Shown here in pieces: positions 19,465-50,103 of a DNA stretch of 61,500 nucleotides (position 1 is the first letter of the stretch; each line of letters starts with the position of its first letter). Made by a program: the position numbers and the translations under genes. The DNA lies in the IMG/VR virus record IMGVR_UViG_3300017740_002729, positions 1-61,500 of that record; one strand, given 5' to 3'. The stretch comes from a virus. Its lineage: Duplodnaviria; Caudoviricetes. Under the pieces are notes generated by a model. The model was not told where the DNA came from. It was given only the letters and a program-made list of their open reading frames with translations, and searched no databases.

Positions 19465-21516
19465 ATGGCATTAAATAATCAAATAAAGAATTTTAAGAAT
19501 AAGGGTAGGGATATAAAATACCTTAACAAAGATTTCGAAGCATTTAGAACTAATCTAATGGATTTCGCAAAAACTTACTTCCCTTCTACTTACAATGACT
19601 TTAACGAGTCATCACCTGGTATGATGTTCATTGAAATGGCATCTTATGTTGGTGATGTATTGGGTTATTATATCGATGATACATTAAAAGAATCATTACT
19701 AACAACTGCTGAAGATAGAGAGAATATATTTGAACTATCTAAGTTTATGGGATATAAACCAAAAGTAACTTCACCAGCGGTAACTAATTTGACTGTTTAT
19801 CAATTAGTACCTTCGAGAATAAAAGCTGACCCAATAGCTAGTGGTGATTTAAGATATGAACCAGATAGTGATTATTTTTTAAGAGTAAAAGAAGGTATGG
19901 AGGTTGATGCTGATGGTGTAACCTTTAGAACAACAGAATTATTAGATTTCTCAGTAGAAGATGGTAGAGAAATAACAATCTATGAAAGAGATGGTGATAC
20001 TAATACACCAACATTCTACTTAGTAAAAAAATATGTAGATGTGATATCTGCAACAGAAAAAGAATTAGAAATAACATTTGGAGCAGGTACTGGGGAATTT
20101 GCTAAGATAGATATACCCGATACTGATGTTATTCAGATATATGATGTAAGAGATAGTAATAATAACAAATACTATGAAGTACCTTACTTAGCACAAGAGA
20201 TGGTTTATGTTGAATATTCAAATACAGAAACGCAGGATAAGGACTTATATCAATTTAAAGATACAGTTCCATCGATATTAAAACTAATAAAAACACCAAG
20301 AAGATTTAAAAGTGTAATTAATCCAAATGGTTCTACTACAATACAATTTGGTAGTGGTGATGCTGGTAAGGATGATGAATTACTAATACCAAACTTTAAG
20401 AATGTAGGTTTAGGATTACCAAATTCTATAAATAGATTAGGCGCATCCTTTGACCCATCTAATTTCTTAATGACAAAATCATATGGACAATCTCCAAAAA
20501 ATACTACTATAACAGTTAAGTATTTTGTAGGGGGTGGTGTTTCTACAAATGTAGCATCTAATACAATTAAAAGAATAACAAATGCTAACTTTGATGAAGA
20601 TTTAACAATATTCGATGAAGTAAAAAGAGGATTATATGCTCAAGCTAAAAATTCATTAGCAGTAAACAACGACCAACCAGCTAAAGGTGGTAGAGGAGCA
20701 GAAACCTTAGAAGAGATAAGAGAAAACGCTATAGCAAACTTTGGTTCTCAAAACAGAGCAGTAACCGCTAAGGATTATCAAGTTAGAGCATTATCAATGC
20801 CACCTAAGTTTGGTAACGTAACTAAAGCATTTGTTGCAGCTGATGGAAACTTAGATGATAATTCACCAGCATCAATATTAGCATCACCTGATTCACTATC
20901 TGAGTTCAGTACATTGATTCAAGATTTAGTAGAAGATGGAGATATATCAGATAAGGATGTAAAAGAAAAAGTAACTAAGTTTTTATCAAACAAAAAATCA
21001 AATACTAAAGAAAAAAATAATCCATTTGCGGTAAACCTTTATGTATTGGGATACAATTCTGATAAGCATTTATCACCATTAAACATAGCAGTTAAACAAA
21101 ATATAAAAACATATTTAAATGAATTTAGAGTTTTAACTGATGGTATAAATTTAATGGATGGATTTGTCATAAATATGGGATTAGATTTCTCTATAAGAGT
21201 GTATAGAGATTATAATAAGAGAGAAGTATTAACAAACTGTATCTCATCGATAAAAGAACATTTTGAAATCGATAATTGGACATTTAATATGCCAATCAAT
21301 ATTGGTGAAGTAGAAATGATTATTGGAAACATCGAAGGTGTACAATCTGTTGTAGAGTGTACATTTAAAAATTTATGTGGAGAATCATCTGGATATTCTC
21401 CAAACGCATATGATGTATTGGCGGCTACGAAGAATAAACAAATTTATCCTTCATTAGACCCATCAATATTTGAAATTAAGTATCCAGATAACGATATAAA
21501 AGGAAGAGTTGTATAA
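19465..21516 (+). CDS. Baseplate wedge protein (T4 gp6-like)
   Basis: NKDFEAFR, YNDFNESSPG, GYKPK, QFGSG, GGRGAET, SQNRAVTAKDY. Confidence 0.9.
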   Translation: MALNNQIKNFKNKGRDIKYLNKDFEAFRTNLMDFAKTYFPSTYNDFNESSPGMMFIEMASYVGDVLGYYIDDTLKESLLTTAEDRENIFELSKFMGYKPKVTSPAVTNLTVYQLVPSRIKADPIASGDLRYEPDSDYFLRVKEGMEVDADGVTFRTTELLDFSVEDGREITIYERDGDTNTPTFYLVKKYVDVISATEKELEITFGAGTGEFAKIDIPDTDVIQIYDVRDSNNNKYYEVPYLAQEMVYVEYSNTETQDKDLYQFKDTVPSILKLIKTPRRFKSVINPNGSTTIQFGSGDAGKDDELLIPNFKNVGLGLPNSINRLGASFDPSNFLMTKSYGQSPKNTTITVKYFVGGGVSTNVASNTIKRITNANFDEDLTIFDEVKRGLYAQAKNSLAVNNDQPAKGGRGAETLEEIRENAIANFGSQNRAVTAKDYQVRALSMPPKFGNVTKAFVAADGNLDDNSPASILASPDSLSEFSTLIQDLVEDGDISDKDVKEKVTKFLSNKKSNTKEKNNPFAVNLYVLGYNSDKHLSPLNIAVKQNIKTYLNEFRVLTDGINLMDGFVINMGLDFSIRVYRDYNKREVLTNCISSIKEHFEIDNWTFNMPINIGEVEMIIGNIEGVQSVVECTFKNLCGESSGYSPNAYDVLAATKNKQIYPSLDPSIFEIKYPDNDIKGRVV

Positions 21517-22574
21517 TGTATTATTTTTTAACCGCATCTAAGGACACAACAATATTTTCTCAGCAAGCTGTACAGAATACAGGATTGGATGAGATATTAG
21601 AAGTGTCTAAAGTTTATTATGGGAACTTAAAGGATACTGCTCGTTCTTTAGTAAAATTTGATTTAAATACACTTCCATCCAAATTATCATCTGGAGCAGT
21701 AACTATGAGTGAAGCACAGATAGTAATCAGAGAAACACAACCAAGTGAAATAGCATTAGCATACTCATTACATATACACCCAATATCTCAATCTTGGGAA
21801 ATGGGAATAGGTACTCGTTTTGATAACATATCAACGGATGGTTGTACTTGGAACTATAGAGCAAGTGGTAGTAAGTGGCTACCTACCGAAGTTCCAAATG
21901 GTGGATTGGCTACTGGCTCTTATGATGGTAGAGGTGGTATGTGGTACACCGCATCCGAACAAACCCAATCATATGAATACCAATCAACTGATTTAGAAAT
22001 TGATGTATCTTCATCTCTTTCGTTTTGGTTAGATGATAATTACCCAAATGAAGGATTTATCATAAAACACAGCGATAGCAAAGAGAATGATGATATAGAT
22101 TATGGACAATTAAAATTCTTTAGTAAAGATACCAATACAATATACCAACCAAAAATTAGAATAGGTTGGGATGATAGTAGGTATGAAACAGGTTCACTAA
22201 CCGATTTACCAGAAGAATACAAAATATCACTAAAAAGATTAAAGAAATCTTACAAAGAGGGAACTAGAGCTGATATTGAAGTATTCGCAAGAGAATTGTA
22301 TCCACAAAAAACATTCAACAACACATTCGGATACTCCACAGGCAGTTTACTTCCAACATCATCATTCTACCAAATTAGAGATTTCGAAAGTAATGATATT
22401 ATAATTCCGTTTTCGGATTATTCTAAACTAAGTACATACAACGATAAAAGTAGAATTAGTTTAGATTTTACAAATTTTGAAATTAACAGAAGTTATAAAG
22501 TAGAATTGAAAATAGAACGTAGTGGTTCTGTTGAATTTTTTGATGATGATTATATTTTTGAAGTAACTAAATAA
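21516..22574 (+). CDS. Virion structural protein (DNRLRE-like beta-sandwich)
   Basis: ASKDTTI, NTGLDEILE, RSLVKFD, NEGFIIK, FFSKDT..YQPKI; baseplate context. Confidence 0.6.
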   Translation: MYYFLTASKDTTIFSQQAVQNTGLDEILEVSKVYYGNLKDTARSLVKFDLNTLPSKLSSGAVTMSEAQIVIRETQPSEIALAYSLHIHPISQSWEMGIGTRFDNISTDGCTWNYRASGSKWLPTEVPNGGLATGSYDGRGGMWYTASEQTQSYEYQSTDLEIDVSSSLSFWLDDNYPNEGFIIKHSDSKENDDIDYGQLKFFSKDTNTIYQPKIRIGWDDSRYETGSLTDLPEEYKISLKRLKKSYKEGTRADIEVFARELYPQKTFNNTFGYSTGSLLPTSSFYQIRDFESNDIIIPFSDYSKLSTYNDKSRISLDFTNFEINRSYKVELKIERSGSVEFFDDDYIFEVTK

Positions 22575-23953: not shown

Positions 23954-23954
23954 A

Positions 23955-25763
23955 ATGGCTATAAAAAATTTTAAAAGTATTTTAGATAAGACCGGCTACT
24001 ACGTTAGTGAGAAGGATAGGAAAATCTTTGAGAGAGGTTCTCTTCCTGCTTACTTTGGTAGAGGTATGACTGATACTATTGAATTTATTTTATATGACCA
24101 AGGTGATAATATTTTACCTCAAGGTAAAGATGGTAAAATGGTAAGGTATGTAGATATATCTAACAAAGAAGCCATTAGAAGATATATTCTAATTGTGAGA
24201 CCTCAAGTATCAAATAAACCAAATGAGTATTTTGTTGATGTTGAAAAACTAATTAATGAAGCTGGATATAAAAATGGTATATTTAAAACCCAAGTAACAC
24301 TACTTAATAAAAGAGTTGGTAGTGAGAAAAAAACCAATAAACTTTGGGTACATGAAATATCACCATCAAGAACTGAAATTAGGGTTTTACCATTAAAGGT
24401 TGAGAATAAAAGATTACAAAACGATTTATTAACTCGATATGATATATTCCTCAGAGATGGTGAATTTAGAGATGATATTGTAAATAGATTACAAGCATTC
24501 CAATCTACACTAAATGCTGAATCGGTTAAGAAAGTATTACAAAACGCATATGGTGAGGATTGGATAAAATTAGTTAAATCAGAATTTCAAGTTCCTGATA
24601 TAGATGATTTTTTAAGAAGAGTGGTTGAGAAATCTAAAGAAGCTCTAAACCACTTTATAGCAGGTAAAGAATTTAAAATAAAAAGTAGTAGATATGGTGA
24701 ACCATTACGAAGAAAACAATCAGCTGCTTTGGATATAATGAGATTATATAAAGTATCCAATCAAATAGTTTGTGATGTTATTGAGGACTTTTTACCTAAA
24801 CGTAATATTATAAGAAAAACTCAAGCTAGCCCAATTATGCTAGAATCAAGAGATAAGTTAGGAAAGATACTTCAACAATTTACATCTAATAAAACATTAG
24901 ATACTAAGGCTAGTGTGGTTGCTAAGGTAATAAAACCAAGACCAATAAAAAAAGGTAGGGTAACTGTTAAACCACCACCACCGCCACCACCGAAACCTGT
25001 AATTATTAAAACACCACCAAAAGTATATTATTTTTATCAATGTACTGCAAATGGTAAAATAGGAAGACCAAGTAAAAGTAGATTTGGTAAAAGTATTTCA
25101 CCTGTAGCAAGAGGAGGCGGAGGAGGATGCTATCAAATGCTATCAGCATTTTTTAGTTATGAAGATATGAATGGCAATAAGATTAAATTTAATCTGAAGC
25201 CAGGTAGTAGCTCTAAAATATGTGCATTAGAAGGTTCGGTAGTTGCAACTGGAGGAGGTAGAATTGTAAAGAAAGAACTATGTAAGGTTAAGAATTATAA
25301 ACCAATCATAGTTAAACCTAAGCCATATATACCACCACCGCCACCGCCACCACCGAAACCTATTGAGATAAAGCCAGTTCCTATTTTGAACTTGCCTTTT
25401 AAATTTCCACCATTGAAGTTGGATTTTCCACCTATTAAACCATTTCCACCAATTAAGTGGCCAATAATGCCTGCTAATACAGGACAATATTCTACGCTAT
25501 CAAAAGAGTTAGCGAAAATAAATCCACCGATACCTAAACCAGCACCAAAGCCAACACCACCACCACCTCCAATCATACCACCAGCTGTCAGAGTACAATC
25601 AGAAGCTGTTGGAATTGACCCAGATGCATATTTAAAAAGTATGAGGGATAGAGGAGCCGCAATGGGCGGTGGCGGAGGAATGGGAACATTCGGAGGTTAT
25701 AGAAAAACATCATTCGGAAGTGGGTTCAGCCCCTTCGGAAGTAATAGATTTAATACATACTAA
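23955..25763 (+). CDS. Structural protein with polyproline C-terminal half
   Basis: HEISPSRTEIRV motif; PPPPPPP/KP-rich stretches; FG/G-rich tail. Confidence 0.75.
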   Translation: MAIKNFKSILDKTGYYVSEKDRKIFERGSLPAYFGRGMTDTIEFILYDQGDNILPQGKDGKMVRYVDISNKEAIRRYILIVRPQVSNKPNEYFVDVEKLINEAGYKNGIFKTQVTLLNKRVGSEKKTNKLWVHEISPSRTEIRVLPLKVENKRLQNDLLTRYDIFLRDGEFRDDIVNRLQAFQSTLNAESVKKVLQNAYGEDWIKLVKSEFQVPDIDDFLRRVVEKSKEALNHFIAGKEFKIKSSRYGEPLRRKQSAALDIMRLYKVSNQIVCDVIEDFLPKRNIIRKTQASPIMLESRDKLGKILQQFTSNKTLDTKASVVAKVIKPRPIKKGRVTVKPPPPPPPKPVIIKTPPKVYYFYQCTANGKIGRPSKSRFGKSISPVARGGGGGCYQMLSAFFSYEDMNGNKIKFNLKPGSSSKICALEGSVVATGGGRIVKKELCKVKNYKPIIVKPKPYIPPPPPPPPKPIEIKPVPILNLPFKFPPLKLDFPPIKPFPPIKWPIMPANTGQYSTLSKELAKINPPIPKPAPKPTPPPPPIIPPAVRVQSEAVGIDPDAYLKSMRDRGAAMGGGGGMGTFGGYRKTSFGSGFSPFGSNRFNTY

Positions 25764-25790
25764 TGAGATTCGGCGGAAGTAATAGATTTA
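25736..25790 (+). repeat. 17-bp direct repeat CGGAAGTAATAGATTTA across a gene junction
   Basis: Copies at 25736-25752 and 25774-25790. Confidence 0.9.
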
Positions 25791-28700
25791 GAAATAGAAA
25801 CAAAAGAGCTAATCAGTTAACTGGTAGGAGAAGTCGAGGTGGAGGACAAACTTTAAATCTTTCAGCTGGTGCATCTGCTCAGTTGCTTAGACTTAAGCAA
25901 ATTGCTCCAAAACCAGCTCCAATGAAAATAGTGAGAGTGCCTTCAAATGCTAGGCCATCATCTATTACAGCAACTAGAGTAGTAATACCACCTGCTCCAC
26001 CAATTTTACCACCACCAAGGGTAAATCCACCACCAAGAAAATCAAAACCAGCGGCTGAGCCAGATTATAATCCACCGGTGGTTAGAACGGCTGTACAAAT
26101 AACGGGTAATACTATTCAACGTAATTTACAACCAAAAGCGGTATATGAAACACCAAAACCATTTAATACTAGATTTATACCACCACCAGGTGGTAATTTA
26201 AGTAATTCGGCATTAGCAAGACTTAGGTCACAAACACCAGTTAAACCACCAGTAAATAGACCTACACGTCCAATAGCTATTGGTAGTCCAATGGTAAGAG
26301 GAATATCTACTGATAGAGGATTTACAGATGGAGTAGCTGCAAGTACTGTGGGTGGAACTTTAAATGAAGGATTACAACCAATGGCTGTATTGATGGACCA
26401 GTACGATGCTAGAGCTAATGAAATTAGAAATAATCCTTTTGCTACACAAAATACAGGTCAATTAGAACAAGAAGTTATTAATCAAATTGGGGTAAGACCA
26501 AGGGGGCCTGTAAGAATACCACCTCCACCAAGGGTAGATGTAAAGCCACCTATTAGAACATATCCTAAACCAATACCTAACCCACCACTACCTAAGCCGG
26601 ATATTCCAAATAAGGATTTTACACTTACTGTTGGTTCAACTCCAGGTGGTGCAAATATTTATATGGATGGTAAAAAGGTAGGAAGTGCTTTTACAGTAAT
26701 TACCCTTCCTTATAAATCAATATTAGGTGTAACTAAAAAAATAACCGCTCAATTAACTGGTTATACAAATAGATTGGGTAGAGATGCAGTTTATTATACA
26801 ATTACAGGTGTAACAAAAACTGTACAGATTAAAGAAAATTACGATACCTATGAATTTGATGATGTAATTGAACCTGATGAATTAGTAGATATAAGACGAG
26901 GCCCAAGAGGTAATTTTGGAATTGAAGATAGAGGATTTGGAGGATTTGGTGGACAGGGTTCTCCTGAAGGAGGTTTTTATGGAACTAATCTGAATAGACG
27001 TGAAAGAGATAGATTCGATAGAGATAAATCTCCATTTGGAGGAAGGGTTACTAAAAAAAGAAGAAAAGTAACAAAGACACGAATTAAATCCGTAGATAAA
27101 TACGAGATTGTAGTTAAAAAATATCTGAAGGGTAAAGAAGTTTCAGGTGGATTACCAAGCAACCAACTACGTCATTTAATTTTTGATTTCAAAAAAGTAA
27201 TAATTGATATTAAGGATGATGATATCAAAGATGATTATCCTAAAAAAACCGATGACCCACCACCACCGCCGGTAAATCCCGAACTATTAATAGTTTCTAA
27301 GGGTGGAAGAATGAATACGTTTAATGTAAACGTAAAGGGAGAAAACATAACAAACTCAGCTGGGAACTATTCATCAAAAAAACCATTTACAGTAACAATT
27401 ACACAAGTTGCAGGATATGATATAAAAGGATTTGGGATTTTAAAAGGTCAAATAGATGACCAACCCGATGAACCAGCTATGGAGCAGTTAGATTTAAATG
27501 AACTAACTATTGATGTAGGTGGTAAGATGACTATCTATGTTGACTGGCAAAATGAAGTCAAAATACTTAAACCAAGTGTAACGTTAAATAATAATTCATT
27601 TACTATCAACATTGGTGAGCTCACTAATGGTTTAGGTGGAATTATAATAGGATATGCATCTCAAAACGCATCTACTATTAAATTACAACTTAGAAAAATA
27701 GCAAGAACCAACACAAACCAAGCTGGTACATTTTCATTAAATCCAAATGTATTTTCTGAAGGCGTAGGACAATATGTTGGATATGTAATTCCAAATAACC
27801 CCGGATATGGTGATGGTGAAAAGAAAAGATTTACTGTAAATGTTATTTCTAAAACTTTCTTACCTGGACCTGATATTGTTAACATAACATATCCATCGTT
27901 AGTAAAAGGAGCAGATTTTAGAGGATTAAATGTAGATTTTACCATTGGATATGAATCTGTAAATACAAATTATGTAAACATATCCGTAGGAGCTCCTGAT
28001 ATATTTTATGGTAAATTTGGAAAAGCACAAGCGGTTGATTTTAATATAGCAAGAATATTAAAGTTAGCTGGTGATAAAATAAAAGATGAAGATGAGGATA
28101 ATATCAAATTTAGTATATTCCTCTGTCCATACAATACAGCAACGGATAAAGTAGTAAAAGGTAAAGTAGAAGAATTATCTATTACATTTGATAAAGGAAA
28201 TTTAACATTATCAAGAGGAGATGTGGTTGAAAGATTATGTTCAGCATTCCAATTTGATTTTACTACATTTGATGATGAAACATCTAAATACCTAACTCAC
28301 TTAGCACATTTTGGTGATGGTAATAATAAACTTATAACAACTTGGGAAACGGATGATGTAACCTTTGTTGATTTTAAAGCAGACCCTATAACAGGTAAAG
28401 CAACTGATAAGAGACGTGGTGGATTTGATAGTTTGGTTTTAAAATTATATGAACCATTAGAAAAATCAATTCAACCAAACTCTACATTATTTTTATCTAA
28501 AATAATTACACCATCTGTAATTGAAGAAATTTCTATCATAGATGATGCGGAAGAATATTGTGTACCATTAAAAGGACCTAATTTTGGTGTAAATCTATGT
28601 GGAACACCAAGTGATATGGGATACACACTAATAGATGAATTAGTAGATAGTGGTTCTCAATCATCAGCAAAGTTAATAAATACATTTGTATCTAAGAGTG

Positions 28701-32417: not shown

Positions 32418-33650
32418 ATGGCAGAAATAACAGGACAACAAGGAGCATCGTTAACTAATGAGTTAGCACAATACCTTCAAAATGCAGATGGATTAGTATC
32501 CTCTGAGGAAATTGCAGGAATTGTTAATGAATACCTCTCCGGCGGAGACCAACTTGAAGCAAGTGGTATCAGCGCAGCAACAGGTATTTATAAAAGATTT
32601 AATCAATTTGATTTAATTACTGGTAAAGTTGAAGTAGTAACAACGGGATTATGGTCAGGTGATACAGGTTCACTTACATCATTCTATACTTCATCTCAAT
32701 CGGCATCTTCATCAGGTGATTATTATTATAATGTATTTAACGATACAGCAGGAGCAAACCTTCAGTTTGCAGTAGCATATGGTCATATTAGTGGTAGTGG
32801 TTCTGTCTCCCTTGCAACTAATGATAATGCTAAGAATCCTACTAAAGCAACTTATTCTCAATATCGTTCTGTACTATTAGACCAAGGAGATTCACACTTT
32901 ACATTCGCATCTTCATCTGGATTGGGACACAATACAGAAGATTTCTTTGTAATTAACATAGCAAGAGCTAGATATAAAGAACAAATGGATGCTGGTAACT
33001 GGTCACTTAAATTAAGTGGTTCAAGAGGTACACATACGTTTATTGATGATAGTGGTAAGAAATTCTCAGATACAGTTGGTAAATCAGGAAGAATATTTAA
33101 TGTAGTAAGTGGTTCATTGAACTTAGGTTCAGCAAATGAAGCAGCTATAGAAAGAACATATACTTCGGGCGCAATGGAAGGACAAGGATTTGGATTATTC
33201 TATCCTGACCAAGGAATGATTATTCTTAACCCTGGCGCTTTAGAATCTACAATAGGAACTTCGTTAGATACAGGTTCAGCTGGTGGATTCTCAATGACAG
33301 GTTCAAAGGCAGTTGGTATAGATGCTGATAAGAAAGCACACCATTGGTTGTATGAAGCAATGGTTAAAGGAGCTGATTTCGAAGCAAGAAGAACAGAAAA
33401 CGTTTCTACTTCACATTACTTCGTAAGAGCAACAAACAGAGAATACAACTTCTCTAACAACCCAACATTCGTAAGTGGTTCTGATAACGCATTTGCAGTA
33501 TCTTCATTTAGAAGAGACCCAAAAACGTTTATTACTACAATCGGACTTTACAATAACGCAAGTGAACTATTAGCAGTAGCTAAAACATCACAACCTGTTG
33601 CAAAATCTTTTGATAAAGAAGTATTGGTAAAAGTTAAGTTAGACTTTTAA
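32418..33650 (+). CDS. Virion structural protein
   Basis: C-terminal EYNFSNNPT...ITTIGLYNNASELLAVAK, shared with the next gene; rich in SGS/TGS. Confidence 0.7.
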   Translation: MAEITGQQGASLTNELAQYLQNADGLVSSEEIAGIVNEYLSGGDQLEASGISAATGIYKRFNQFDLITGKVEVVTTGLWSGDTGSLTSFYTSSQSASSSGDYYYNVFNDTAGANLQFAVAYGHISGSGSVSLATNDNAKNPTKATYSQYRSVLLDQGDSHFTFASSSGLGHNTEDFFVINIARARYKEQMDAGNWSLKLSGSRGTHTFIDDSGKKFSDTVGKSGRIFNVVSGSLNLGSANEAAIERTYTSGAMEGQGFGLFYPDQGMIILNPGALESTIGTSLDTGSAGGFSMTGSKAVGIDADKKAHHWLYEAMVKGADFEARRTENVSTSHYFVRATNREYNFSNNPTFVSGSDNAFAVSSFRRDPKTFITTIGLYNNASELLAVAKTSQPVAKSFDKEVLVKVKLDF

Positions 33651-35206: not shown

Positions 35207-35219
35207 AACATTTTTGCTT

Positions 35220-35624
35220 ATGCCCACATGGACATACGGCGGTAAGTACATTACCGAAATTTCCGATATGCCTGAAGGAACAGTAGGATTCGTATATAAA
35301 ATACGAAACACATCAACAGGCGCTTTTTACATCGGAAAAAAGCAACTTTACTCACATAGAACATTACCACCGCTAAAAGGTATGAAACGTAAGCGTAAGG
35401 TAATTAAAGAGATGAAGTGGCAAGGATACCAATCATCCCAATCTCAAGTAAACGAATGGCAAACCGATAATATCGAAAAAATCATACTCAGATATTGTAA
35501 ATCAAAAAAAGCATTAACGTATTACGAAGTGGAAGAACAGATAAAACATAACGTTTTAGGGGAAGAACACTCGTTAAATGATAATATTTTAGGAAAATTC
35601 TTTAGAAAAGACTTGGAATTGTAA
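35220..35624 (+). CDS. GIY-YIG-like nuclease-domain protein
   Basis: GFVYKIRN...FYIGKK, YYEVEEQ, LNDNI. Confidence 0.7.
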   Translation: MPTWTYGGKYITEISDMPEGTVGFVYKIRNTSTGAFYIGKKQLYSHRTLPPLKGMKRKRKVIKEMKWQGYQSSQSQVNEWQTDNIEKIILRYCKSKKALTYYEVEEQIKHNVLGEEHSLNDNILGKFFRKDLEL

Positions 35625-41514: not shown

Positions 41515-41515
41515 T

Positions 41516-42397
41516 ATGAAAATAAGAGTAGTAGTTACGGGTGGAGCAGGATTTATTGGTTCTTCGTTTGCTAACTTATGTGTTAGTAAAGGATTAGATG
41601 TTTTGGTAGTAGATAAACTAACATACGCTTCTAACGTAGATATCATTCCAAAAATACCAATACTAAAAAAAGATATATGTGATGTAACCGAAGAAGATTT
41701 AGGTGAGTATGATTTTTTAGTAAACTTTGCAGCTGAATCTCATGTTGATAACTCAATCAAAGATGGTAAACCCTTCGTTAAATCTAATATAGAAGGAACA
41801 TACAATCTTTTAGAATTGGCAAGAAAAAATCCAAAATTACAAAAGTTTGTACAAATCAGTACCGATGAGGTTTATGGTGATTTAGATTTATTAGATATCG
41901 ATGCATCGTTTGAACAAAACTTTTTATATCCATCATCCTATTACTCAGCAACAAAAGCATCAGCTGATATGTTAGTTTATAGTTGTGGGCATACGTTTGG
42001 ATTACCTTATGTTATAACTCGTACCTGTAACAACTTTGGTATCAACCAACATAGTGAAAAGTTTATTCCTACAATCATGCGTTCTATAAAAGAGGATAAA
42101 CCAATACCTGTCTATGGTGATGGTAAACAAATTAGAGAATGGATTTGGGTTGAGGATAATGTTAAAGAAATATTAAAACTAATGTTGTACAAAGAAGGTA
42201 CTTACAATATTGGTAGTGGTGATACTTTACAAAACATAGATATTGTAGCTCATATAGCATTCCTTTTAGGTAAAGCACCTAAGTATGAATTTGTTGAGGA
42301 TAGAAAAGGACACGATAGAAGATACACATTGGATACGGATTTTGAAAAACCGAATATAACAAAAACGTTATTTCAATATTTAAAAGAACAATTATGA
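41516..42397 (+). CDS. rmlB: dTDP-glucose 4,6-dehydratase
   Basis: TGGAGFIGS, DKLTYA, AAESHVDNS, STDEVYG, YSATK, DRKGHDRRY. Confidence 0.93.
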   Translation: MKIRVVVTGGAGFIGSSFANLCVSKGLDVLVVDKLTYASNVDIIPKIPILKKDICDVTEEDLGEYDFLVNFAAESHVDNSIKDGKPFVKSNIEGTYNLLELARKNPKLQKFVQISTDEVYGDLDLLDIDASFEQNFLYPSSYYSATKASADMLVYSCGHTFGLPYVITRTCNNFGINQHSEKFIPTIMRSIKEDKPIPVYGDGKQIREWIWVEDNVKEILKLMLYKEGTYNIGSGDTLQNIDIVAHIAFLLGKAPKYEFVEDRKGHDRRYTLDTDFEKPNITKTLFQYLKEQL

Positions 42398-43227
42398 AAA
42401 TAGGAATAATAGGACAGGGATTTGTTGGTAATGCGATTTACCAAAAGTTTAAAAACTACTTTGATGTATTAACTTATGATTTAGATAAATCAAAGTGTAA
42501 TTCTACATTTGGTGATTTGATGATGTGTAATACTATATTTTTATGTTTACCCACACCAATGAATATGGATGGAAGTTGTAATGTTGATATTGTACAAAAC
42601 ACATTATCAGAAATAGATTTAATTGCAGATAATCAAGAAGTTAAAAAAACTATAGTAATAAAATCTACGGTATCACCTGGTACAACAAAAAAATGGAACT
42701 CCTTATATCAATCATTAGATATAGTTTTTAATCCAGAGTTTTTAACTGAAGCAAATGCGGTTGATGATTTTAATAATCAAAATAGAATTATATTAGGAGG
42801 ACCAAGACCAGCTACTACAGAATTAAGAAGATTATATTCTAAGGTATTTCCAAAGGCACATATTATAAAAACTGATTCAACTCATGCTGAAATGGTAAAA
42901 TATTTAACTAATTCGTTTTTAGCAACTAAAGTTTCTTTTGCTAATGAAATGTATCAAGTCTGTGAAAAGTTAAATATTGATTACGATAAAGTAGTTGAGT
43001 ATGCAACTTTAGATGATAGGTTAGGAAAATCACATTGGAATGTACCAGGACCAGATGGAGATTTTGGATTCGGAGGACATTGTTTACCAAAAGATTTACA
43101 TGCATTAATATCATTAGCACATGACTTAAATGTACAACCACGAATACTAACAGCAGTTGATTCTAAAAACAATGATGTTAGAACAGATAAAGATTGGAAA
43201 AGAATGAAAGGGAGGGCAGTTATTTAG
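42394..43227 (+). CDS. UDP-glucose/GDP-mannose dehydrogenase family protein (short form)
   Basis: GQGFVG, CLPTP, IKST, NPEFL, AEMVKY, GFGGHCLPKD. Confidence 0.9.
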   Translation: MKIGIIGQGFVGNAIYQKFKNYFDVLTYDLDKSKCNSTFGDLMMCNTIFLCLPTPMNMDGSCNVDIVQNTLSEIDLIADNQEVKKTIVIKSTVSPGTTKKWNSLYQSLDIVFNPEFLTEANAVDDFNNQNRIILGGPRPATTELRRLYSKVFPKAHIIKTDSTHAEMVKYLTNSFLATKVSFANEMYQVCEKLNIDYDKVVEYATLDDRLGKSHWNVPGPDGDFGFGGHCLPKDLHALISLAHDLNVQPRILTAVDSKNNDVRTDKDWKRMKGRAVI

Positions 43228-43375: not shown

Positions 43376-43376
43376 A

Positions 43377-43396
43377 ATCTATAGAATTCTATAGAT
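43377..43396. promoter_or_regulatory. Perfect 20-bp palindrome ATCTATAGAATTCTATAGAT (putative operator)
   Basis: Self-complementary; 1 nt from the RHH start codon. Confidence 0.7.
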
Positions 43397-43423
43397 AAAT
43401 AGAGTGAGAATATTTTTTCAATA

Positions 43424-43431
43424 TATTTATG
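43424..43431 (+). promoter_or_regulatory. Putative late promoter, variant TATTTATG
   Basis: Immediately upstream of the tail fibre gene. Confidence 0.55.
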
Positions 43432-43434
43432 TGT

Positions 43435-46400
43435 ATGGGAATTATAAAAAAGTACGGAACACTTCATAAACTAAAGAATAAACAACCATTTATACTTGAT
43501 AGAAATCCAGCATCAGACTATTTCAATATTACAGAATTTCCTGAAACATTTGGTGGTGGAAAAAATGGATTCTTAATAGAAGGTTCGCCTTTATTAAAAC
43601 CATCTACAAAGTTAAAAATAGATATTACAGATGTAGATGGTAATGCTATATATTTTGAACCAGCTACAAGTAATGGTAAAACATTTTATGATGGTACATC
43701 AGCCGTTGTATCAGTTTGGGTATATGATGATACTCCGATTGGTATTGGTGAGATTACTATAATGGGTGAATTGACTCATTTTATTGATGAGAGGGGAGTT
43801 AAAAGACCTGTACCTGAAAAGTGGGAAGATACATATAATGTAAAGTGGACTCGTAGATTCAAAGTAAATTCAGGTTTACCAAATAAAGAAAAAGTTAGGT
43901 TTTTCAAAAAACCAGTTGTTACTATAGATGAAATAGTAAAGCAGGTTTATATAAAAGAAATACCATCGATTACTCAAACAGGTAGTGTTGATGGATTTGC
44001 AGGAACACCTGAAGAAGGACAGGATTTATCTACTTGGACTGCTGGTACTTTTTACAAAATAAAATTAGATACAGATAACCCATCTCAACCAGGATTTTCA
44101 CAAAGTATGGATGAGACTATCATATCTATTCCAAGTTTAGGATACAATCCAACAATTAAAGAAGTTGTAACACCAACCGATTTATTAGTAGATGTTCCAT
44201 TTACACAAAAAGGATTAGTATCTAACTTCCAAGATGCTCCGTATAGTGTAACCTTTGAAGCAACAGAAGACCAAGTGCTTGGGGAAACTTCACTAACAGG
44301 TTCATTTGCTGATATTAAAATAACAAATTTAAAAACATTTACTGGTGATGTAGCTAGAGTAAAAATATTTAGAAAATCAAGAAATGAAGTAGGTGATTTT
44401 CAATTCGTTCAAGAAACAAAGTTAGAATCAGCTGAATTATTAAGAAATGTAACAAACACATCGGATACTATAATTGAATATGGTAACTTAAATTCATTTA
44501 ATGTTGCAAATTTCTTCGTATCGCATTCTACTGGTGTTCAATTAAATAATGATAAATTAATAAATTCTATGTTTTTAGAAAGTGATGGTTTAATCCACAC
44601 TTCTGAATCTATAGATTTTGTTAGTGGTTCTGAATATACATTATCTTATAGGGTTAGAAAAAACGGATTTAGTGAAACTGATAAATTATACTTTTCTATT
44701 AGTGGTTCATCCACATCACAAAGTATAGATATAGTATCAGCATCTGTAGCTAACGAATTTGGTTCGAATGGATACAATCAATCTAAAAAGATAACTAAAA
44801 ACTTTATATCAACAATAAGTGGTTCAGCTAATTTAAATATTCAAGCTGATAATCCAACTGCTAATGAATTTCATATAGCTAATCTAAGTTTAAAATCAGC
44901 AGAACAAACATCGTTTTCACCTGATGAATTTAATACGATTATTGATATACCAAGAAAAGGTGTTGCGGAACAATTTGATTTTAAATTTGAGTTTTACGAT
45001 ATTAATAATAACTTTATTCCAATAACAGTAACATCAACTAAAAACTTTACTGGTGGTAATACATCTGAAATATCTAAACTTACAAAGTTCTTAAACTTTG
45101 AATCAAACAAAACCGCATTTAGATTTACAACAGGTTCATTTGGTAGTCCTGAGAATCAATCATTAGGATTTAAAACACAATTTAACTTATTAACTGGTTC
45201 GGTAACATATCTTTCATCAGCATTTGATACGGAAGGTAACTACATTGTACCATCTGCCTATACTCAAAGTGGGGCTCATACATATCCGGGTGCTTTAACT
45301 AACACCTCTATTAATGGAGCTACATTAACAATTGCATCATTCTCTGGTTCAAGACATAATGAACAATATGGTAGTGGTGGTGGTGAATCAACCATTGTAG
45401 TTGGTTCTATAACATACACCGCATCTATGGAAGGTGGGGAGCATGAAGAATTTGAAACAGTATACAGATTTGAAGATGGTGATTCAGCAGCTGCAATTAT
45501 AGCAACTGCAAACCAATCAAACTTTGTATATAGAGCATCTACATTAAACCCAGACCCAACAAGTCAAACAATATTAATTAATGTAGCTAGAAAAAACTTA
45601 GGTGGACCAAACAAACCGATAGAAATAAACTCAGCATCAGCCGAAGGAACTCCACCACCATTAACCGAAGTTACTGATTCTAATGGTATAAAAACTTTAT
45701 CACTTGGAGTTGATGCATATCCATTTACTGAAGGAACTACAACATACTCATTTACATCTTCGGATGATTTTAATATAGATTATTCAGATTCAGTTACAAT
45801 ATCGCCTGTAAAGATATTTGGTGGTGTATCCGTAACGTTAACAAATGAAAACGCATCGTTTGAAGCAACGCCTGTAGGTACAGTTGCTGCAGGTGATTTT
45901 GCTGCTAGTAGTGGTTCTATACAATTGAAAGTTGGTAATGAAGATATTACTTTTGATGATGATAATGATTCATCAACTGCTAATAACACATTTGCATTAA
46001 TAGGAGTTACGGGTTCAGGATGTACACCAAACTTTAATAATCCAGCCATAAACGAATATGGTATAACAGCGATGTCTCAAGATTCAGCATCATTGGAACT
46101 ACAGATAAGATATAAAGATGGTAGTGGTGATACAACGGATTTTTCTAAGACAGTAACTTATACAAAAACAAAACAAGCAACACCAAACATTGAAGTAGCA
46201 GCTACACCATCATCTCAAACAATCGCAGCTGATTCTAAAGGTAGTGGTTCTTCTGTACCTGATAGTATAGAAGTATCCGCAGTTGAGGGTGGTGTTGATA
46301 GATTTATTTCGATTGGTACACCTACATTTTCAAATGGATTAGCAGGTTCAACAGGTGGGTTAGCTAGTAAAGTAATAACTTTTACATCTAATGCATCAGC

Positions 46401-49400
46401 TATGACATCCGATACTGGTAGAATTGAAATTCCAATAAACTTTCAAGATGCAGATGGAGTAACGGGTCAAAAAAATGTAGTTTGTTCTGTAACGAGAGTA
46501 AAATCAGCACCACCTGTAATAGTTGTAAATGCTTCACCTGGTGCACAAACTATAGAAGCAACTTCATTTGGTACAGGTTCTGAAATACCAGACCCAATCA
46601 CAATAACAGCATTTGAAGGAACTACAAACGCATTTACATCTATGGTTGCTAGTGGTTCAAATGGAATGACTGGTAGTATAAGTAGTAATGTATTTACATA
46701 TACTACAAGCGCAACCAATATGGGAATTGGGCCAGATAATGCTAATATAACATTTACAATAACCCACACCGATTCAGAAGGAACTGTAGGTACTTCTAAT
46801 GTTATATCATCTGTAAGTAGAGTAAGAAAAGGAAAATCGGCATTCCAAATAATATTAGACCCACAAGTACAAACTGTAGTAAGTTCTTCATCCATTGCGG
46901 CTCCATCTTCATTTACAATTGCATTACAAGAAGGAGCAAACGCTTACACATATAGACATAGTTCATCTCCTGGTTCACCATACCAATTTAGTGTAAATGG
47001 TCTTACAAATGGTACAAACATATCATCAGCTGATGGTTCTTTAGTTACAATATTACCAACAACTCCATCTAATAATAATGGAACAAAGACAACAGTCTTA
47101 CTAAACATTATGGATGGTGAAGGTCAAACTTTTGTAGACCAAAAAGTTACACATATTGTTAACGTTAGTGGAGTAGGACCTGCTGGGGCACAAGGACCAC
47201 AAGGAAATCCGGGAGCACCCGGTTCTTCGGGTACTACCGCAGCTGGTATAGTATTTACAGGTAACTATTCTGCAGCAAAAACATATGTATCATCATCGGC
47301 TAGAATAGATGTTTGTGAATTAACAGATACAACCGCAGGAACAAACTTTTGGAAAGCAATTAGTTCTGGTTCATTAGGACAACCATCTCCATCATCATCA
47401 GATTGGGAAGCATTTGGAGAAGAGTTTGATTCAGTAGCTACAGATATTTTATTCGCTCAAGATGCATACGCTAATAGAACACTTAATGTTGGTACAAGCG
47501 GAAGTACAAAACCAGTCATAGCACTTAATTCAGATTTTGCTAATGATGGTGCTAATCCATTTATTGGAGTAAATGTTTCAGCATATGCAGCTTCTGAAGG
47601 AATGTATATGGGATATGATGGAGGAACGCCAAAATTAAGTTTAAAGGGTGGAGTAAGTGATGGATTCTTTACATGGGATGGAAGTAACTTAAATATACAA
47701 GGTTCAATTAATATAACAGGTGGAGCTACCGCTGATACGATATCACAATTAAATACAGCAACTGGTTCTCTATCTTCTGATATAAGTACGGCTGAAACAA
47801 ATGCTACAAATGCGGGACAAGCGGCTGCAGCAAATGCGGTAACAAGTGGTTCAACCGCTGCATCTACCGCCCAATCCAACGCTCAATCTTTTGCAACTAC
47901 GGCAGCAGGAAATGCTGCTACTTCTGCATCGAATGCTCAATCAACCGCAAATACAGCCAATTCAAATGCGAGTACTGCTCTAACTGCGGCTAATGCAGCT
48001 ATCGCTAGTAGTTCTACAGACCCAACAACTGGAAAATTAACTAAACCTTTTACACCAACTGGAGATGGTTTATTTTTAGGACCAGATAATTTAGGTTTCT
48101 ATAGTTCTTCAGATTGGAGAACATATATGTCATCAAGTGGTGATTTTGAATTAGCAGGTACAAGTGGATTCTTACAATGGAATGCTGGTTCATCATCTTT
48201 ACTAATACATGGTAGAGTTAGTGGTTCTCAAATAGAAGGAGGAACATTAGTAGGTTCATCTATTAGCATACCTACCGCAGAATCACCAAAATTCTCAGTT
48301 GATAGTAATGGAAATATGACTTGCCAAGACGCAACCATATCTGGTTCAATTAATGTTGATGATGGGGTTGTGGGATTGTGGCACGTAACTGATTCAGGTT
48401 CAGGTGGATTCTTTCAAAATGCTAGTGGAAAGCTTGGTGGAGGTGAAGCAACAATTATTTTAGACCCAACTACACCTGAGATGTTATTTAAATCTGGCGC
48501 AGCGGGTGGTAATTTTGAAACAAAATTAAGAATCAAACCAGGTGATGAATGGACTTCAACCTCTGGAGGTAATATCTCTATTAACGATATGGATATAGTG
48601 GAAGGTACTCCTTCCAATCCTACATCTGATTCTAGTAATACAAATTACGTTTACAATGAAGTTGCTGAAACTTTAACAGGAACAACATATACAATACCTG
48701 GTGGTACATTTGATTTGGGCTCAATACGAACACCATATTATTTAGAATTGGGAACACCTGGTACTGTTTCTGCTGGTAGTACTGATTATCCAAACTATTC
48801 TCCATCATACGCAAACCAACAACATCCGTTCTTTGGACAAAGTACCATATCTAAAGGATTTTCCGCGAACTTCTATTTGGAAGCAGTGAATCAAGCAGAT
48901 AGCTCAGTTACTACAGTACAATTATATAGTGCATTCGCTTCGGGACAATATGTAACTTCACCTTATTATCAATCCGAATCAACTGGATTTGGATTACAAT
49001 GGGTTTATAATGGTGGTACTACTATTTCTGCAACAAGTAATGGTGAAATAGCTGGTAGCTCTTCGGTAATTAATAACAAATCAATTACCTTAACCGCAGG
49101 TGATTATAAATTTAGATATAAATTAAAAGTTGGAGCAAGAAGTGGTAGAAGGGTTAACACCGATTCTTCAGGAAATCAGACACTTACATACCAAACCCAT
49201 ACCCTTAGTGGATTAAATTATGATTTGGGAAGTTTAACAAACTTTTTTCAAATAATAGTACCAACTAATGTTATTGATTTAACATCTAAAGGATTGCAGG
49301 TATTAAATGATTCCGATACATATGTTCAAATTAATAGATTAGGTAGTGGGTTTGGTTCACAACCAACTCTTGTAAATGTTAAAGGGGGTAAGGTTGCTAT

Positions 49401-50103
49401 TGATGGAGATGATGCTTCAAATTCTGCCGATTTAACGGCAAACTATGCACAATTCCAAACAGGTTCATCTAATATATTTTCAGTAGGTTATAACGGAGCT
49501 CAAACTACAGAAGGAAATCTTAGAGGTAGTTTATATTTGACAGGAGATGTAGACCCTGCTTATTACACAACTGGTAATTCAACTAGAGATATGGGTAATA
49601 CCAGTAGATGGTGGGATGAACTATATGCAGATAACTTCAATAATCAATCTGATATAAAAATTAAAGAAAATATTAGTGGTTCAGAACTTGGTTTAACTTT
49701 TATAAATTCATTAAGACCAGTACAATATAGTTTAAAAGAGAGTACTAAAAAAAGAACTCGATATGGTCTTATTGCTCAAGAAGTTTCAGAATCACTTGGT
49801 CAAATTGGAAAAACAACTGCTGATTTTAAAGGATTAAATACAGGTTCAAGTAAAATTGCTAGTTACGAAAGTAAATTTGAAAAATCAATTTCTGAAATAG
49901 TATTAAGTGGTTCACATTATCATTCTTATGATTCGGAAGGAACTGGTTCGGGTGAAATAACACAAGAATGGGTTGATAATGAAATTAGTTCATCTATATG
50001 GACACTAACCTATACTGAATTTATTGCTCCATTAATTAAATCAGTACAAGAGTTATCGGCAAAGGTAACTGAATTAGAAAACCAAATAAGTGGTTCTGAA
50101 TGA
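43435..50103 (+). CDS. Large tail fibre/spike protein with C-terminal intramolecular chaperone (peptidase S74-like)
   Basis: Ig-like beta repeats, short collagen GXY run at 47176-47232, Ala/Thr/Asn coiled coil, SDIKIKENI...LRPVQY...GLIAQEV...LIKSVQELS; start could be 43429. Confidence 0.85.
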   Translation: MGIIKKYGTLHKLKNKQPFILDRNPASDYFNITEFPETFGGGKNGFLIEGSPLLKPSTKLKIDITDVDGNAIYFEPATSNGKTFYDGTSAVVSVWVYDDTPIGIGEITIMGELTHFIDERGVKRPVPEKWEDTYNVKWTRRFKVNSGLPNKEKVRFFKKPVVTIDEIVKQVYIKEIPSITQTGSVDGFAGTPEEGQDLSTWTAGTFYKIKLDTDNPSQPGFSQSMDETIISIPSLGYNPTIKEVVTPTDLLVDVPFTQKGLVSNFQDAPYSVTFEATEDQVLGETSLTGSFADIKITNLKTFTGDVARVKIFRKSRNEVGDFQFVQETKLESAELLRNVTNTSDTIIEYGNLNSFNVANFFVSHSTGVQLNNDKLINSMFLESDGLIHTSESIDFVSGSEYTLSYRVRKNGFSETDKLYFSISGSSTSQSIDIVSASVANEFGSNGYNQSKKITKNFISTISGSANLNIQADNPTANEFHIANLSLKSAEQTSFSPDEFNTIIDIPRKGVAEQFDFKFEFYDINNNFIPITVTSTKNFTGGNTSEISKLTKFLNFESNKTAFRFTTGSFGSPENQSLGFKTQFNLLTGSVTYLSSAFDTEGNYIVPSAYTQSGAHTYPGALTNTSINGATLTIASFSGSRHNEQYGSGGGESTIVVGSITYTASMEGGEHEEFETVYRFEDGDSAAAIIATANQSNFVYRASTLNPDPTSQTILINVARKNLGGPNKPIEINSASAEGTPPPLTEVTDSNGIKTLSLGVDAYPFTEGTTTYSFTSSDDFNIDYSDSVTISPVKIFGGVSVTLTNENASFEATPVGTVAAGDFAASSGSIQLKVGNEDITFDDDNDSSTANNTFALIGVTGSGCTPNFNNPAINEYGITAMSQDSASLELQIRYKDGSGDTTDFSKTVTYTKTKQATPNIEVAATPSSQTIAADSKGSGSSVPDSIEVSAVEGGVDRFISIGTPTFSNGLAGSTGGLASKVITFTSNASAMTSDTGRIEIPINFQDADGVTGQKNVVCSVTRVKSAPPVIVVNASPGAQTIEATSFGTGSEIPDPITITAFEGTTNAFTSMVASGSNGMTGSISSNVFTYTTSATNMGIGPDNANITFTITHTDSEGTVGTSNVISSVSRVRKGKSAFQIILDPQVQTVVSSSSIAAPSSFTIALQEGANAYTYRHSSSPGSPYQFSVNGLTNGTNISSADGSLVTILPTTPSNNNGTKTTVLLNIMDGEGQTFVDQKVTHIVNVSGVGPAGAQGPQGNPGAPGSSGTTAAGIVFTGNYSAAKTYVSSSARIDVCELTDTTAGTNFWKAISSGSLGQPSPSSSDWEAFGEEFDSVATDILFAQDAYANRTLNVGTSGSTKPVIALNSDFANDGANPFIGVNVSAYAASEGMYMGYDGGTPKLSLKGGVSDGFFTWDGSNLNIQGSINITGGATADTISQLNTATGSLSSDISTAETNATNAGQAAAANAVTSGSTAASTAQSNAQSFATTAAGNAATSASNAQSTANTANSNASTALTAANAAIASSSTDPTTGKLTKPFTPTGDGLFLGPDNLGFYSSSDWRTYMSSSGDFELAGTSGFLQWNAGSSSLLIHGRVSGSQIEGGTLVGSSISIPTAESPKFSVDSNGNMTCQDATISGSINVDDGVVGLWHVTDSGSGGFFQNASGKLGGGEATIILDPTTPEMLFKSGAAGGNFETKLRIKPGDEWTSTSGGNISINDMDIVEGTPSNPTSDSSNTNYVYNEVAETLTGTTYTIPGGTFDLGSIRTPYYLELGTPGTVSAGSTDYPNYSPSYANQQHPFFGQSTISKGFSANFYLEAVNQADSSVTTVQLYSAFASGQYVTSPYYQSESTGFGLQWVYNGGTTISATSNGEIAGSSSVINNKSITLTAGDYKFRYKLKVGARSGRRVNTDSSGNQTLTYQTHTLSGLNYDLGSLTNFFQIIVPTNVIDLTSKGLQVLNDSDTYVQINRLGSGFGSQPTLVNVKGGKVAIDGDDASNSADLTANYAQFQTGSSNIFSVGYNGAQTTEGNLRGSLYLTGDVDPAYYTTGNSTRDMGNTSRWWDELYADNFNNQSDIKIKENISGSELGLTFINSLRPVQYSLKESTKKRTRYGLIAQEVSESLGQIGKTTADFKGLNTGSSKIASYESKFEKSISEIVLSGSHYHSYDSEGTGSGEITQEWVDNEISSSIWTLTYTEFIAPLIKSVQELSAKVTELENQISGSE

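Follow-up and report, generated by a model that had tools for sequence, protein, structure and literature searches.

The stretch of DNA considered here is a fragment of 61,500 nucleotides from an uncultured aquatic phage (positions 1 to 61,500 of the IMG/VR record IMGVR_UViG_3300017740_002729; hereafter the window), and all 55 of its open reading frames (ORFs) lie on the + strand. It contains the module of a T4-like baseplate in which gp25 and gp6 are recognizable, and the feature in question is a tripeptide, [S/T]-G-S (below, [ST]GS), that recurs in the tail proteins encoded there. The two inner baseplate wedge proteins at 19032..21516 (gp25-like, 19032-19463, and gp6-like, 19465-21516; matches to PF04965 and to baseplate wedge PHROGs) have no copy of it and serve as internal controls. 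Directly 3' of gp6 is a baseplate-peripheral protein of 352 amino acids (aa; 21516..22574) with five copies. Ten are present in a 1978-aa baseplate protein with a LamG-like domain (25763..31699), eight in a 410-aa peripheral tail protein (32418..33650), seven in its 409-aa paralog, which has the C-terminus in common with it (33741..34970), and 27 in a 2224-aa tail fiber with a C-terminal Peptidase_S74 chaperone domain and the end ...ISGSE (43429..50103).

An earlier note on this DNA had counted these motifs by hand, and its numbers (5, about 10, 8, 7 and about 27) prove to be exact. To assess them we have employed 2000 composition-preserving shuffles of each of the 55 ORF products. The expected counts for the five proteins, in the above order, are 0.52, 2.02, 1.04, 0.34 and 6.70, and in none of them did a single one of the 2000 shuffles match the observed value. 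The remaining 50 ORFs have only three [ST]GS in total, one each in 14000-15724, 17864-18430 and 22574-23953, and there is none in gp6, gp25 or the 1044-aa SbcCD (38380-41514), just as the note had stated. The enrichment also survives the comparison with permuted orders, which are scarce in the five proteins (GSS 9, SSG 8, GST 8 and SGT 1). In a ranking of all tripeptides, SGS comes first (33 vs 5.72 expected, z 11.8) and TGS third (24 vs 4.81, z 8.8); the second most over-represented is PPP (9 vs 0.63, z 10.0). The residue that follows [ST]-G is Ser in 57 of 118 cases and Thr in only 2, and the residue that precedes G-S is Ser or Thr in 57 of 91. The motif is an order-specific feature of the peripheral tail proteins. 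Its flanks tend to be hydrophobic, with V, I and L (6 each of 56) the commonest residues at position -1 and L (7 of 56) at +1; D and E are not dominant at either place. The O-glycosylation sequon of the Bacteroidetes, D-[ST]-[AILVMT], is a different one, as the note had pointed out, considering that here Gly follows the Ser or Thr by definition and that D directly precedes it in only 5 of the 56 cases.

Frame 0 of the five genes has 42 copies of the DNA word [AT][GC][TA]GGTTC[AT], the minus strand has 4, and the two remaining + frames have none. Since the word is confined to the reading frame, the signal is at the protein level, and a DNA-level origin of the motif was rejected on the same ground. 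The claim that the codons vary holds only in part: there is indeed no DNA repeat, but 52 of the 57 motifs use GGT for Gly, and 22 of 33 first Ser residues are encoded by AGT. The latter bias is a general Ser-Gly codon-pair habit that is unconnected with the motif, the preference being equal in Ser-Gly pairs outside it (SG[^S], with AGT before Gly in 62 of 95). The GGT bias arises because GGA-TCN would create GATC, and this the window avoids totally (0 vs ~176 expected in the whole window). Among the relatives described below, GATC occurs 5 times in the 213.6 kb of G001, 0 times in the 190 kb of Mel-JY01 and 513 times in immuto; its absence is suggestive of restriction avoidance in phages whose DNA has no other protection.

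The cultured relatives of the window are Flavobacterium phage immuto, Microcystis phage Mel-JY01 and Rhodothermus phage RM378. To these we have added the uncultured 484-kb jumbo phage LR756508, T4, and a complete IMG/VR relative (G001) that has hits for 49 of the 55 window ORFs. RM378 is described as the reference of the "Far-T4" phages (PMC4360716), and kinship with it would place the window in the same group. Whole-genome counts (simple ORF calling at >=100 aa with overlaps removed, and an analytic expectation) give 60 motifs against 17.5 expected for the window, 109 against 41.9 for G001, 117 against 46.3 for immuto, 105 against 37.3 for Mel-JY01 and 51 against 18.3 for RM378; the hosts of the enriched phages span Flavobacterium, Microcystis and Rhodothermus. 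The first 400 kb of LR756508 have 98 against 68.5, but the permuted controls are equally raised there (both 85 against 68.5) and this small excess is consequently not motif-specific. T4 has 19 against 27.2 in the genome as a whole and 7 against 10.25 in its 16 virion proteins, and on these figures a general property of tail fibers is ruled out as the source of the motif. Our literature search turned up no report of a motif of this kind, nor any of virion glycosylation in these phages.

The enrichment in G001, immuto and Mel-JY01 falls on the fibers, on proteins of the baseplate periphery, on the tail sheath and on neck or head-completion-like proteins, but not on gp6, the tape measure, the hub proteins or the major capsid protein; in RM378 the enriched ORFs are without annotation. 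Proteins in common with G001 number 46 in LR756508, 39 in immuto and 44 in Mel-JY01. The orthologs of the enriched G001 set have 25 motifs (vs 5.0 expected) in immuto and 36 (vs 5.01) in Mel-JY01, as against 6 (vs 2.98) in LR756508, and three of these six are in the homolog of the 410-aa protein, at two ancient sites. The LR756508 sheath has no motif at all, as against nine in the G001 sheath, with 41% identity between the two. The 352-aa protein of the window, for which no Pfam or PHROG family was found, behaves likewise: its orthologs have 7 motifs vs 0.68 expected in G001, 3 vs 0.52 in immuto, 4 vs 0.36 in Mel-JY01 and 0 vs 0.24 in LR756508. A structural necessity of the motif is ruled out, the LR756508 orthologs keeping their folds without the enrichment.

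The sheath offers the broadest sample. In 135 representatives that are mutually <=50% identical, the part before the last 290 residues has 548 motifs vs 149.2 expected, and the last 290 residues 41 vs 19.2; in the former, variable part the controls GS[ST] and S[ST]G come to 202 and 166 (vs 149.1 each). A second set of 173 sheaths, which comes from the search around low-count sheaths described below and may overlap the first, gives 668 vs 179.8. Alignment of 94 sheaths distributes 404 motifs over 120 columns (a number inflated by alignment error in the variable parts), and the best-occupied column has the motif in only 26 of the 94. To judge from these sequences, selection is on the density of the motif and not on its place. 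The AlphaFold2 (AF2) model of the G001 sheath (mean predicted local confidence, pLDDT, 84.5) is that of a contractile sheath: the top match is the Klebsiella phage KP1-variant sheath 9f4a_SA (Z 37.7) with VIA-align 2 and T4 chains (9mkb) with Foldseek, and the minimal sheath of pyocin R2 (3j9q_A) superposes over ~333 residues (Z 33.9, root-mean-square deviation 2.7). All nine motifs of this protein (residues 101-509) are in loops or at the ends of secondary-structure elements in the model; the region that bears them is flanked by conserved N-terminal and C-terminal segments, and none is in the conserved C-terminal core. The seven motifs of the immuto sheath (residues 62-275) and the four of Mel-JY01 (residues 66-410) are similarly placed. 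In solved sheaths, additions between the conserved segments face outward. Sheaths with a low count (0-1 motifs) make up 19 of 132 representatives and are non-randomly placed in the sheath tree; one group that clusters with LR756508 has counts of 1, 0, 0, 0, 3, 1 and 3, and another clade, of nine members, has 0-3. These clades are candidates for further losses of the trait.

The 410-aa protein has 120 homologs (62-96% identity) with 3-12 motifs each (mean 7.19 vs 1.04 expected), and here constancy and turnover are found side by side. Positions 83, 127, 200, 231 and 353 are near-invariant, and of these 127 and 231 are retained in distant homologs, LR756508 included; at positions 91, 125, 167, 250, 285 and 294 the motif has been gained and lost, by exchanges such as TSS/TGS, KDS/[ST]GS and SN-/SGS. 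The first residue interchanges freely, one column having 54 SGS and 52 TGS. The AF2 model of this protein is too poor to be of use (pLDDT 50.2). In the 1978-aa protein every motif is at or beyond residue 963, five of them within the LamG-like stretch, where the Laminin_G_3 match (residues 1322-1462) is under the Pfam cut-off. The LamG domains of two enzymes of the window, discussed below, align there with FKGIINQFAIW and FKGDVAKVMVW, and the virion protein has F-TGS-MDEFRIW. The motif is borne by unrelated folds: LamG loops, the S74 domain and the sheath. For the 410-aa family, the fiber and the 1978-aa protein, sequence searches against solved structures were uninformative; a PHROG search of 10 window proteins put a name to gp6 only, and no Pfam family reaches its cut-off in the large proteins that follow gp6.

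The S74 domain of the fiber (PF13884, E 1.1e-9, 38.8 bits vs a cut-off of 22) covers residues 2074-2123, and five motifs are found between its start and the C-terminus. The earlier note had flagged the presence of the motif in this domain as a caveat, and rightly so, S74 chaperone domains being normally cleaved off. Recurrent patterns in the fibers include six-residue periodic runs such as LTGSLSTSGSLGVTGSIYYN and blocks such as DTHxFTGSvxvSGS. Many related fibers end with a helix and then [ST]GS plus one residue (…LENQISGSE, …LEAKISGSI, …MESGSI, …MITGSV); such ends, at an S74 or coiled-coil region, are found at the IMG/VR loci L001, L004, L011, L014, L026, L028, L029 and L031, and at 50089-50100 in the window. 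Four other IMG/VR fibers (L016, L017, L018 and L021), each encoded by a long ORF 5' of a glycosyltransferase gene of the GT7-LamG type, have long runs of (G-[ST]-S)n in which a collagen-like Gly-X-Y register is built from Ser and Thr only. The L016 fiber has 105 [ST]GS in 1321 aa.

With respect to an enzyme that might read the motif, the 206 ORFs of G001 were compared with the five other genomes (phmmer, E<=1e-3). Only one of them has a counterpart in all three of immuto, Mel-JY01 and RM378 and in neither LR756508 nor T4, and it encodes a small glycosyltransferase (GT) of family 2, hereafter the small GT2. Immuto and Mel-JY01 share both this gene (37% identity; 52362-52985 in immuto) and an adjoining GT-B. 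Among the IMG/VR relatives the small GT2 is found in G001, G006, G007, G009 (48-50% identity), G011 and G013, and in all in more than 554 IMG/VR contigs; a tblastn search of cultured phages found it in immuto (4 records) and Mel-JY01 only. In RM378 it was detected by profile (E 5.9e-15). Two adjacent GT2-like genes are present there (NC_004735.1, 14010-15269), Rm378p016 with this E-value and p017 with E 2e-4, both annotated as hypothetical. The small GT2 is not in T4, nor did the profile find any match at E<=10 in all 484 kb of LR756508, which has only a weak generic GT-B match. The two traits co-vary: each of the five enriched lineages or genomes either has the small GT2 itself or is closely related to a complete genome that has it, and the two that are not enriched are without it. 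The IMG/VR record is only a 61.5-kb fragment, and from its relatives we infer that the window's own phage carries the gene outside it. The earlier note had suggested looking for the enrichment and the glycosyltransferase cluster together in related phages; they do go together for the small GT2 outside the fragment, but not for the GT7, UDP-glucose dehydrogenase (UGDH)-like and sulfotransferase genes of the window, which were rejected as conserved correlates because none is shared with immuto or Mel-JY01. A second immuto glycosyltransferase (396 aa) was likewise rejected as a universal partner, as G006 and G007 have it while the complete genomes G001 and G009 lack it. A search for further lineages without the small GT2, by way of IMG/VR relatives of the low-count sheaths, yielded none (identity <=61%, mostly short contigs); of the 14 such contigs searched the only one that is >=90% complete has the gene, and its sheath has 5 motifs vs 0.82.

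The small GT2 is ~207 aa long (204-226 aa in six members) and consists of the glycosyltransferase domain alone. Pfam Glycos_transf_2 is matched in six of six members (best E 1.9e-10), and the DxD motif, D91-A92-D93-E94, is invariant in all six. A profile of the six sequences run against the PDB has as its best match the glycosyltransferase domain of GmaR (E 7.1e-9, positions 3-203 of 208), and this match takes in the RIYK...W..VHE block. SunS is second (E 1e-5), with a further small stretch at the same block, and in NCBIfam SunS is the best family for four of the six (best E 4e-5). The N-terminal ~180 residues of GmaR are described as transferring GlcNAc to flagellin (PMC9638930). SunS, ThuS and PalS are described as glycosylating a Cys in a Gly-Cys-Gly-Gly/Ser loop that follows a helix, and ThuS a Ser too (PMC6405829). 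As for DNA as the substrate, liquid chromatography with ultraviolet detection and tandem mass spectrometry found deoxyguanosine in immuto DNA fully replaced by fdPreQ1 (PMC10516641). The main text of that paper on this DNA never uses the word "glycosyl", so that it does not indicate a DNA target for the immuto sugar transferases.

The window and its relatives alike encode glycosyltransferases and sugar-nucleotide enzymes. Two tandem enzymes of the window combine GT7 (beta-1,4-galactosyltransferase-like) domains with a LamG_3 domain. The first (52961..54415), a candidate glycan extender with no [ST]GS of its own, matches Pfam GT7N (E 2e-23, 82.9 bits) and GT7C (3.9e-16, 58.9 bits), with LamG_3 (4e-6, 27.5 bits) just below its 27.6-bit cut-off; the second (55046..56488) matches GT7C (2.1e-19, 69.4 bits), GT7N (1.1e-15, 57.9 bits) and LamG_3 (3.5e-11). 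In both, the 7N and 7C domains exceed the Pfam cut-offs, the DxD is present (as HDVDM and HDIDM), and WGWG..EDDD is kept (as WGWGYEDDD in the first); both also have a further C-terminal part of ~130 residues. Relatives of these enzymes are found at 38 IMG/VR loci, where the adjoining fibers are mostly enriched 2-5 fold, and a tblastn search of 50,697 cultured phage records gave no match. Just 5' of the fiber gene, at 41516..43227, there are family matches for an NAD-dependent sugar epimerase/dehydratase and for a 277-aa ORF of the UDP-glucose/GDP-mannose dehydrogenase family (42394-43227), whose match covers the central domain and a portion of the N domain. A C-terminal domain is lacking, and the ORF may be truncated or differently employed. 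The three ORFs 3' of the fiber (50100..52763) are a 327-aa protein without assignment, a Methyltransf_24 protein and a 284-aa protein with a weak GT2_4-like match (E 7.5e-4, under the cut-off). A cytidylyltransferase-like protein is encoded at 54412..54888. The sugar-nucleotide tailoring region at 56513..61272 has a radical S-adenosylmethionine protein, two unassigned ORFs, an epimerase/dehydratase, a dTDP-4-dehydrorhamnose 3,5-epimerase-like protein and a fragment of a thiamine pyrophosphate enzyme. At the other end of the window, 228..2121 encodes a 2-oxoglutarate-Fe(II) oxygenase, an unassigned ORF and a Sulfotransfer_2 protein (1432-2121), and 9456..15724 has, among other ORFs, those for a cupin sugar isomerase-like protein, a cytidylyltransferase-like protein, a rhamnosyl O-methyltransferase-like protein and a carbamoyltransferase (14000-15724). 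The totals for the window include two epimerase/dehydratases, two cytidylyltransferase-like and two Methyltransf_24 proteins. In the interval from the baseplate module to the primase there is a gene for a SegE-like GIY-YIG homing endonuclease (35214-35624); besides the small GT2, this is the sole G001 gene that is common to immuto and Mel-JY01 and absent from LR756508.

We propose that in the RM378-related lineage [ST]GS may be a surface tag kept by selection, irrespective of position, on the tail proteins that face outward, namely the fibers, the neck proteins, the periphery of the baseplate and the sheath's variable domains, and that its most likely role would be that of acceptor site for a cytoplasmic protein O-glycosyltransferase which the phage itself encodes. 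The candidate enzyme is the minimal, ~207-aa GT-A/GT2 protein, which is akin to Listeria GmaR and to the SunS-type peptide glycosyltransferases. It would start the glycan at the Ser/Thr that opens the motif, where this stands in a loop at a beta-strand end or behind a helix, and the products of the variable sugar genes beside the fiber genes would lengthen and tailor the chain. The tailoring set of the window would comprise the two GT7-LamG enzymes, epimerases, methyl-, carbamoyl- and sulfo-transferases, and cytidylyltransferases. A pattern that is specific to a lineage and to exposed parts, independent of position and dispensable for the fold, together with a single matching gene that resembles those of protein glycosyltransferases, makes a sequon the best reading of these sequences. 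An acceptor hydroxyl at position 1 agrees with the observed pattern, in which S and T replace each other freely there and position 3 is strictly S, and the nucleophile-Gly-[Gly/Ser] site of SunS, ThuS and PalS parallels [ST]-G-S. The small GT2 is accordingly suggested, by this comparison of families, to act on protein, with [ST]GS as its site and the first residue as the one modified. On balance, we regard the idea that [ST]GS is the sequon of a phage-encoded O-glycosylation system as evenly poised between right and wrong. The larger picture, in which an abundant aquatic lineage would coat the exterior of its tail with its own glycans, [S/T]-G-S being read by a minimal GT2 and the outer sugars diversified by hypervariable enzymes, is held more tentatively, at slightly less than an even balance. 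The earlier note had claimed that the phage glycosylates exposed virion proteins at this motif: the motif is real and glycosylation is its best-supported explanation, but "exposed surface only" is too narrow, as in 31 distinct fiber C-terminal tails, S74 domains included, [ST]GS comes to 36 vs 8.2 expected.

This last figure is one of several points that weigh against the proposal. The small GT2 gene is not in the window itself, and its co-variation with the motif amounts to few independent events, a clade-wide presence and one apparent loss. In a tree of seven proteins (2228 columns, six taxa), in which the branches of RM378 and T4 are long, the order is T4, RM378, LR756508, (G001, (immuto, Mel-JY01)) with supports of 97 and 87; LR756508 is placed between RM378 and the other three, and its lack of both the small GT2 and the motif excess is therefore an apparent joint loss. 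RM378 is also without the partner GT-B that is conserved in G001, G009, immuto and Mel-JY01; seven of its eight enriched ORFs have no PHROG and the other has one weak "virion structural protein" match, and its orthologs of the enriched G001 set are not enriched (3 vs 1.16). The avoidance of the motif in non-structural proteins is not significant (pooled 23 vs 32.5). As to the enzyme, its SunS score does not reach the NCBIfam cut-off (~17.9-18 bits vs 350), which makes it kin and not a member; it lacks any extra substrate-recognition domain such as the tetratricopeptide repeats (TPR) of GmaR or the C-terminal domain of SunS; and the GT2 family is so huge that the nearest solved structure need not share its acceptor. 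Some sites of the 410-aa family, to judge from the two ancient ones kept in LR756508, are simply structural, and the location in loops is non-discriminating, since S, G and T favor loops anyway.

The last two points lead to the possibility that [ST]GS is a structural or physico-chemical habit of the lineage that entails no modification, perhaps a tight turn or strand-end cap, its link with the small GT2 being a coincidence of shared ancestry. The contexts are typically hydrophobic-[ST]GS-hydrophobic, and the periodic runs (LTGSLSTSGSLGVTGSIYYN), the recurrent blocks, the collagen-like (G-[ST]-S)n arrays, the five near-invariant and two ancient sites of the 410-aa family and the position of every mapped site in a loop or at a strand end would all agree with such a habit, as would the small number of evolutionary events behind the GT2 correlation. 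Nevertheless, the same folds are motif-poor in LR756508 (6 vs 2.98; sheath 0 vs 9) and in T4, unrelated folds bear the motif, and its positions turn over while the density is kept. Moreover, no obvious turn rule combines a strict S at position 3 with a free S/T at position 1, and Asx residues, which are structural mimics of S/T in such turns, almost never replace position 1. Nor would a mere habit lead one to expect that the one gene in 206 with the same phyletic pattern should be a GmaR/SunS-like transferase. We consider this explanation possible but rather unlikely. Selection for density in exposed regions shows that the motif is read or useful, but not by what, and the reader might instead be a phosphorylation or acylation system, an assembly chaperone, or a host or environmental ligand on the tail surface; the enrichment of the S74 region and the C-terminal [ST]GS-x ends would fit an assembly or recognition signal. 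This seems improbable, considering that the phyletic pattern is shared by no kinase or other candidate writer but by the small GT2 alone (1 of 206, phmmer E<=1e-3), and that sugar-nucleotide genes are abundant beside the fiber genes in the window and in its relatives. Finally, the earlier note had drawn on animal proteoglycans, where Ser-Gly is the attachment dipeptide, and a pathway of GT7, UDP-glucose dehydrogenase and Sulfotransfer_2 enzymes could be imagined to initiate and build the glycan on Ser-Gly. All three families are confirmed in the window, as the note had said, and the fibers that adjoin GT7-LamG genes are mostly enriched 2-5 fold. As the mechanism it is not supported, however, for immuto and Mel-JY01 are enriched without having any of the three genes, and the UGDH-family ORF is short and devoid of a C-terminal domain. 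The enzymes of CAZy family GT7 use sugar acceptors and not protein, and the site of the proteoglycan xylosyltransferase has acidic residues flanking the Ser-Gly, whereas the flanks here are hydrophobic, so that the likeness does not hold either; we find this origin highly improbable.

Should [ST]GS be glycosylated, we would be dealing with marine and freshwater phages, abundant as a group, that furnish their tails with sugars of their own making. Such a programmable glycan shield on the phage tail would have consequences for adsorption, for the host range and for the degree to which the phage sticks to particles or mucus, as well as for protease resistance and for recognition by grazers or immune systems. 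The motif would then be the shortest defined O-sequon known for a cytoplasmic protein glycosyltransferase, and three residues together with a 200-residue cytoplasmic enzyme could be put to use in glycoengineering. If it is not a glycosylation site, the sequences would still present an unusually clean case of selection for the density of a short motif over its position, and this would need another explanation. As three of the enriched phages (immuto, Mel-JY01 and RM378) are in culture, the question is directly testable.

The closest parallel among phages is perhaps that of the mycobacteriophages, for which Freeman et al. 2023 have reportedly shown by chemical means that phage-encoded glycosyltransferases carry out virion O-glycosylation, the targets being, it is said, the Ser/Thr-rich C-termini of the capsid and tail tube. 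In both cases phage-encoded glycosyltransferases decorate, as proposed or shown, the virion proteins of their own phage in the cytoplasm. Here, however, the parts concerned would be the sheath, the baseplate periphery, the neck and the fibers, the site a defined tripeptide predicted from sequences, and the candidate enzyme a minimal GmaR/SunS-like GT2. The prophage-borne (SPbeta) SunS and its kin ThuS and PalS (GT2; TIGR04195; PDB 7msp, 7msn) match in the GT-A domain and in having a peptide nucleophile that is followed by Gly-Gly/Ser. SunS differs in its size (422 aa vs the ~207 aa of the phage GT2, which has no C-terminal substrate-binding part) and in modifying one Cys on a small bacteriocin, as against the putative many Ser/Thr on large folded virion proteins. 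GmaR of Listeria monocytogenes (PDB 22ao) is the best solved relative and O-glycosylates, in the cytoplasm, Ser/Thr of a structural protein that forms filaments, but it has 637 aa with TPR and anti-repressor domains where the phage enzyme is a bare glycosyltransferase domain, and no sequon is reported for it in the part of the source drawn on here (PMC9638930). The resemblance to the linkage enzymes of animal proteoglycans is that the GT7N and GT7C pair of the window keeps the DxD and the WGWG..EDDD; the phage enzymes differ in carrying LamG_3, in not being conserved among the enriched phages and in the hydrophobic flanks of the motif that accompanies them. Giant viruses such as the chloroviruses and mimivirus have their own sugar-nucleotide synthesis and glycosyltransferases, with non-canonical sites on structural proteins. 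They are viruses of eukaryotes with N-linked or other sites, whereas we are dealing here with a tailed phage and a putative O-linked tripeptide.

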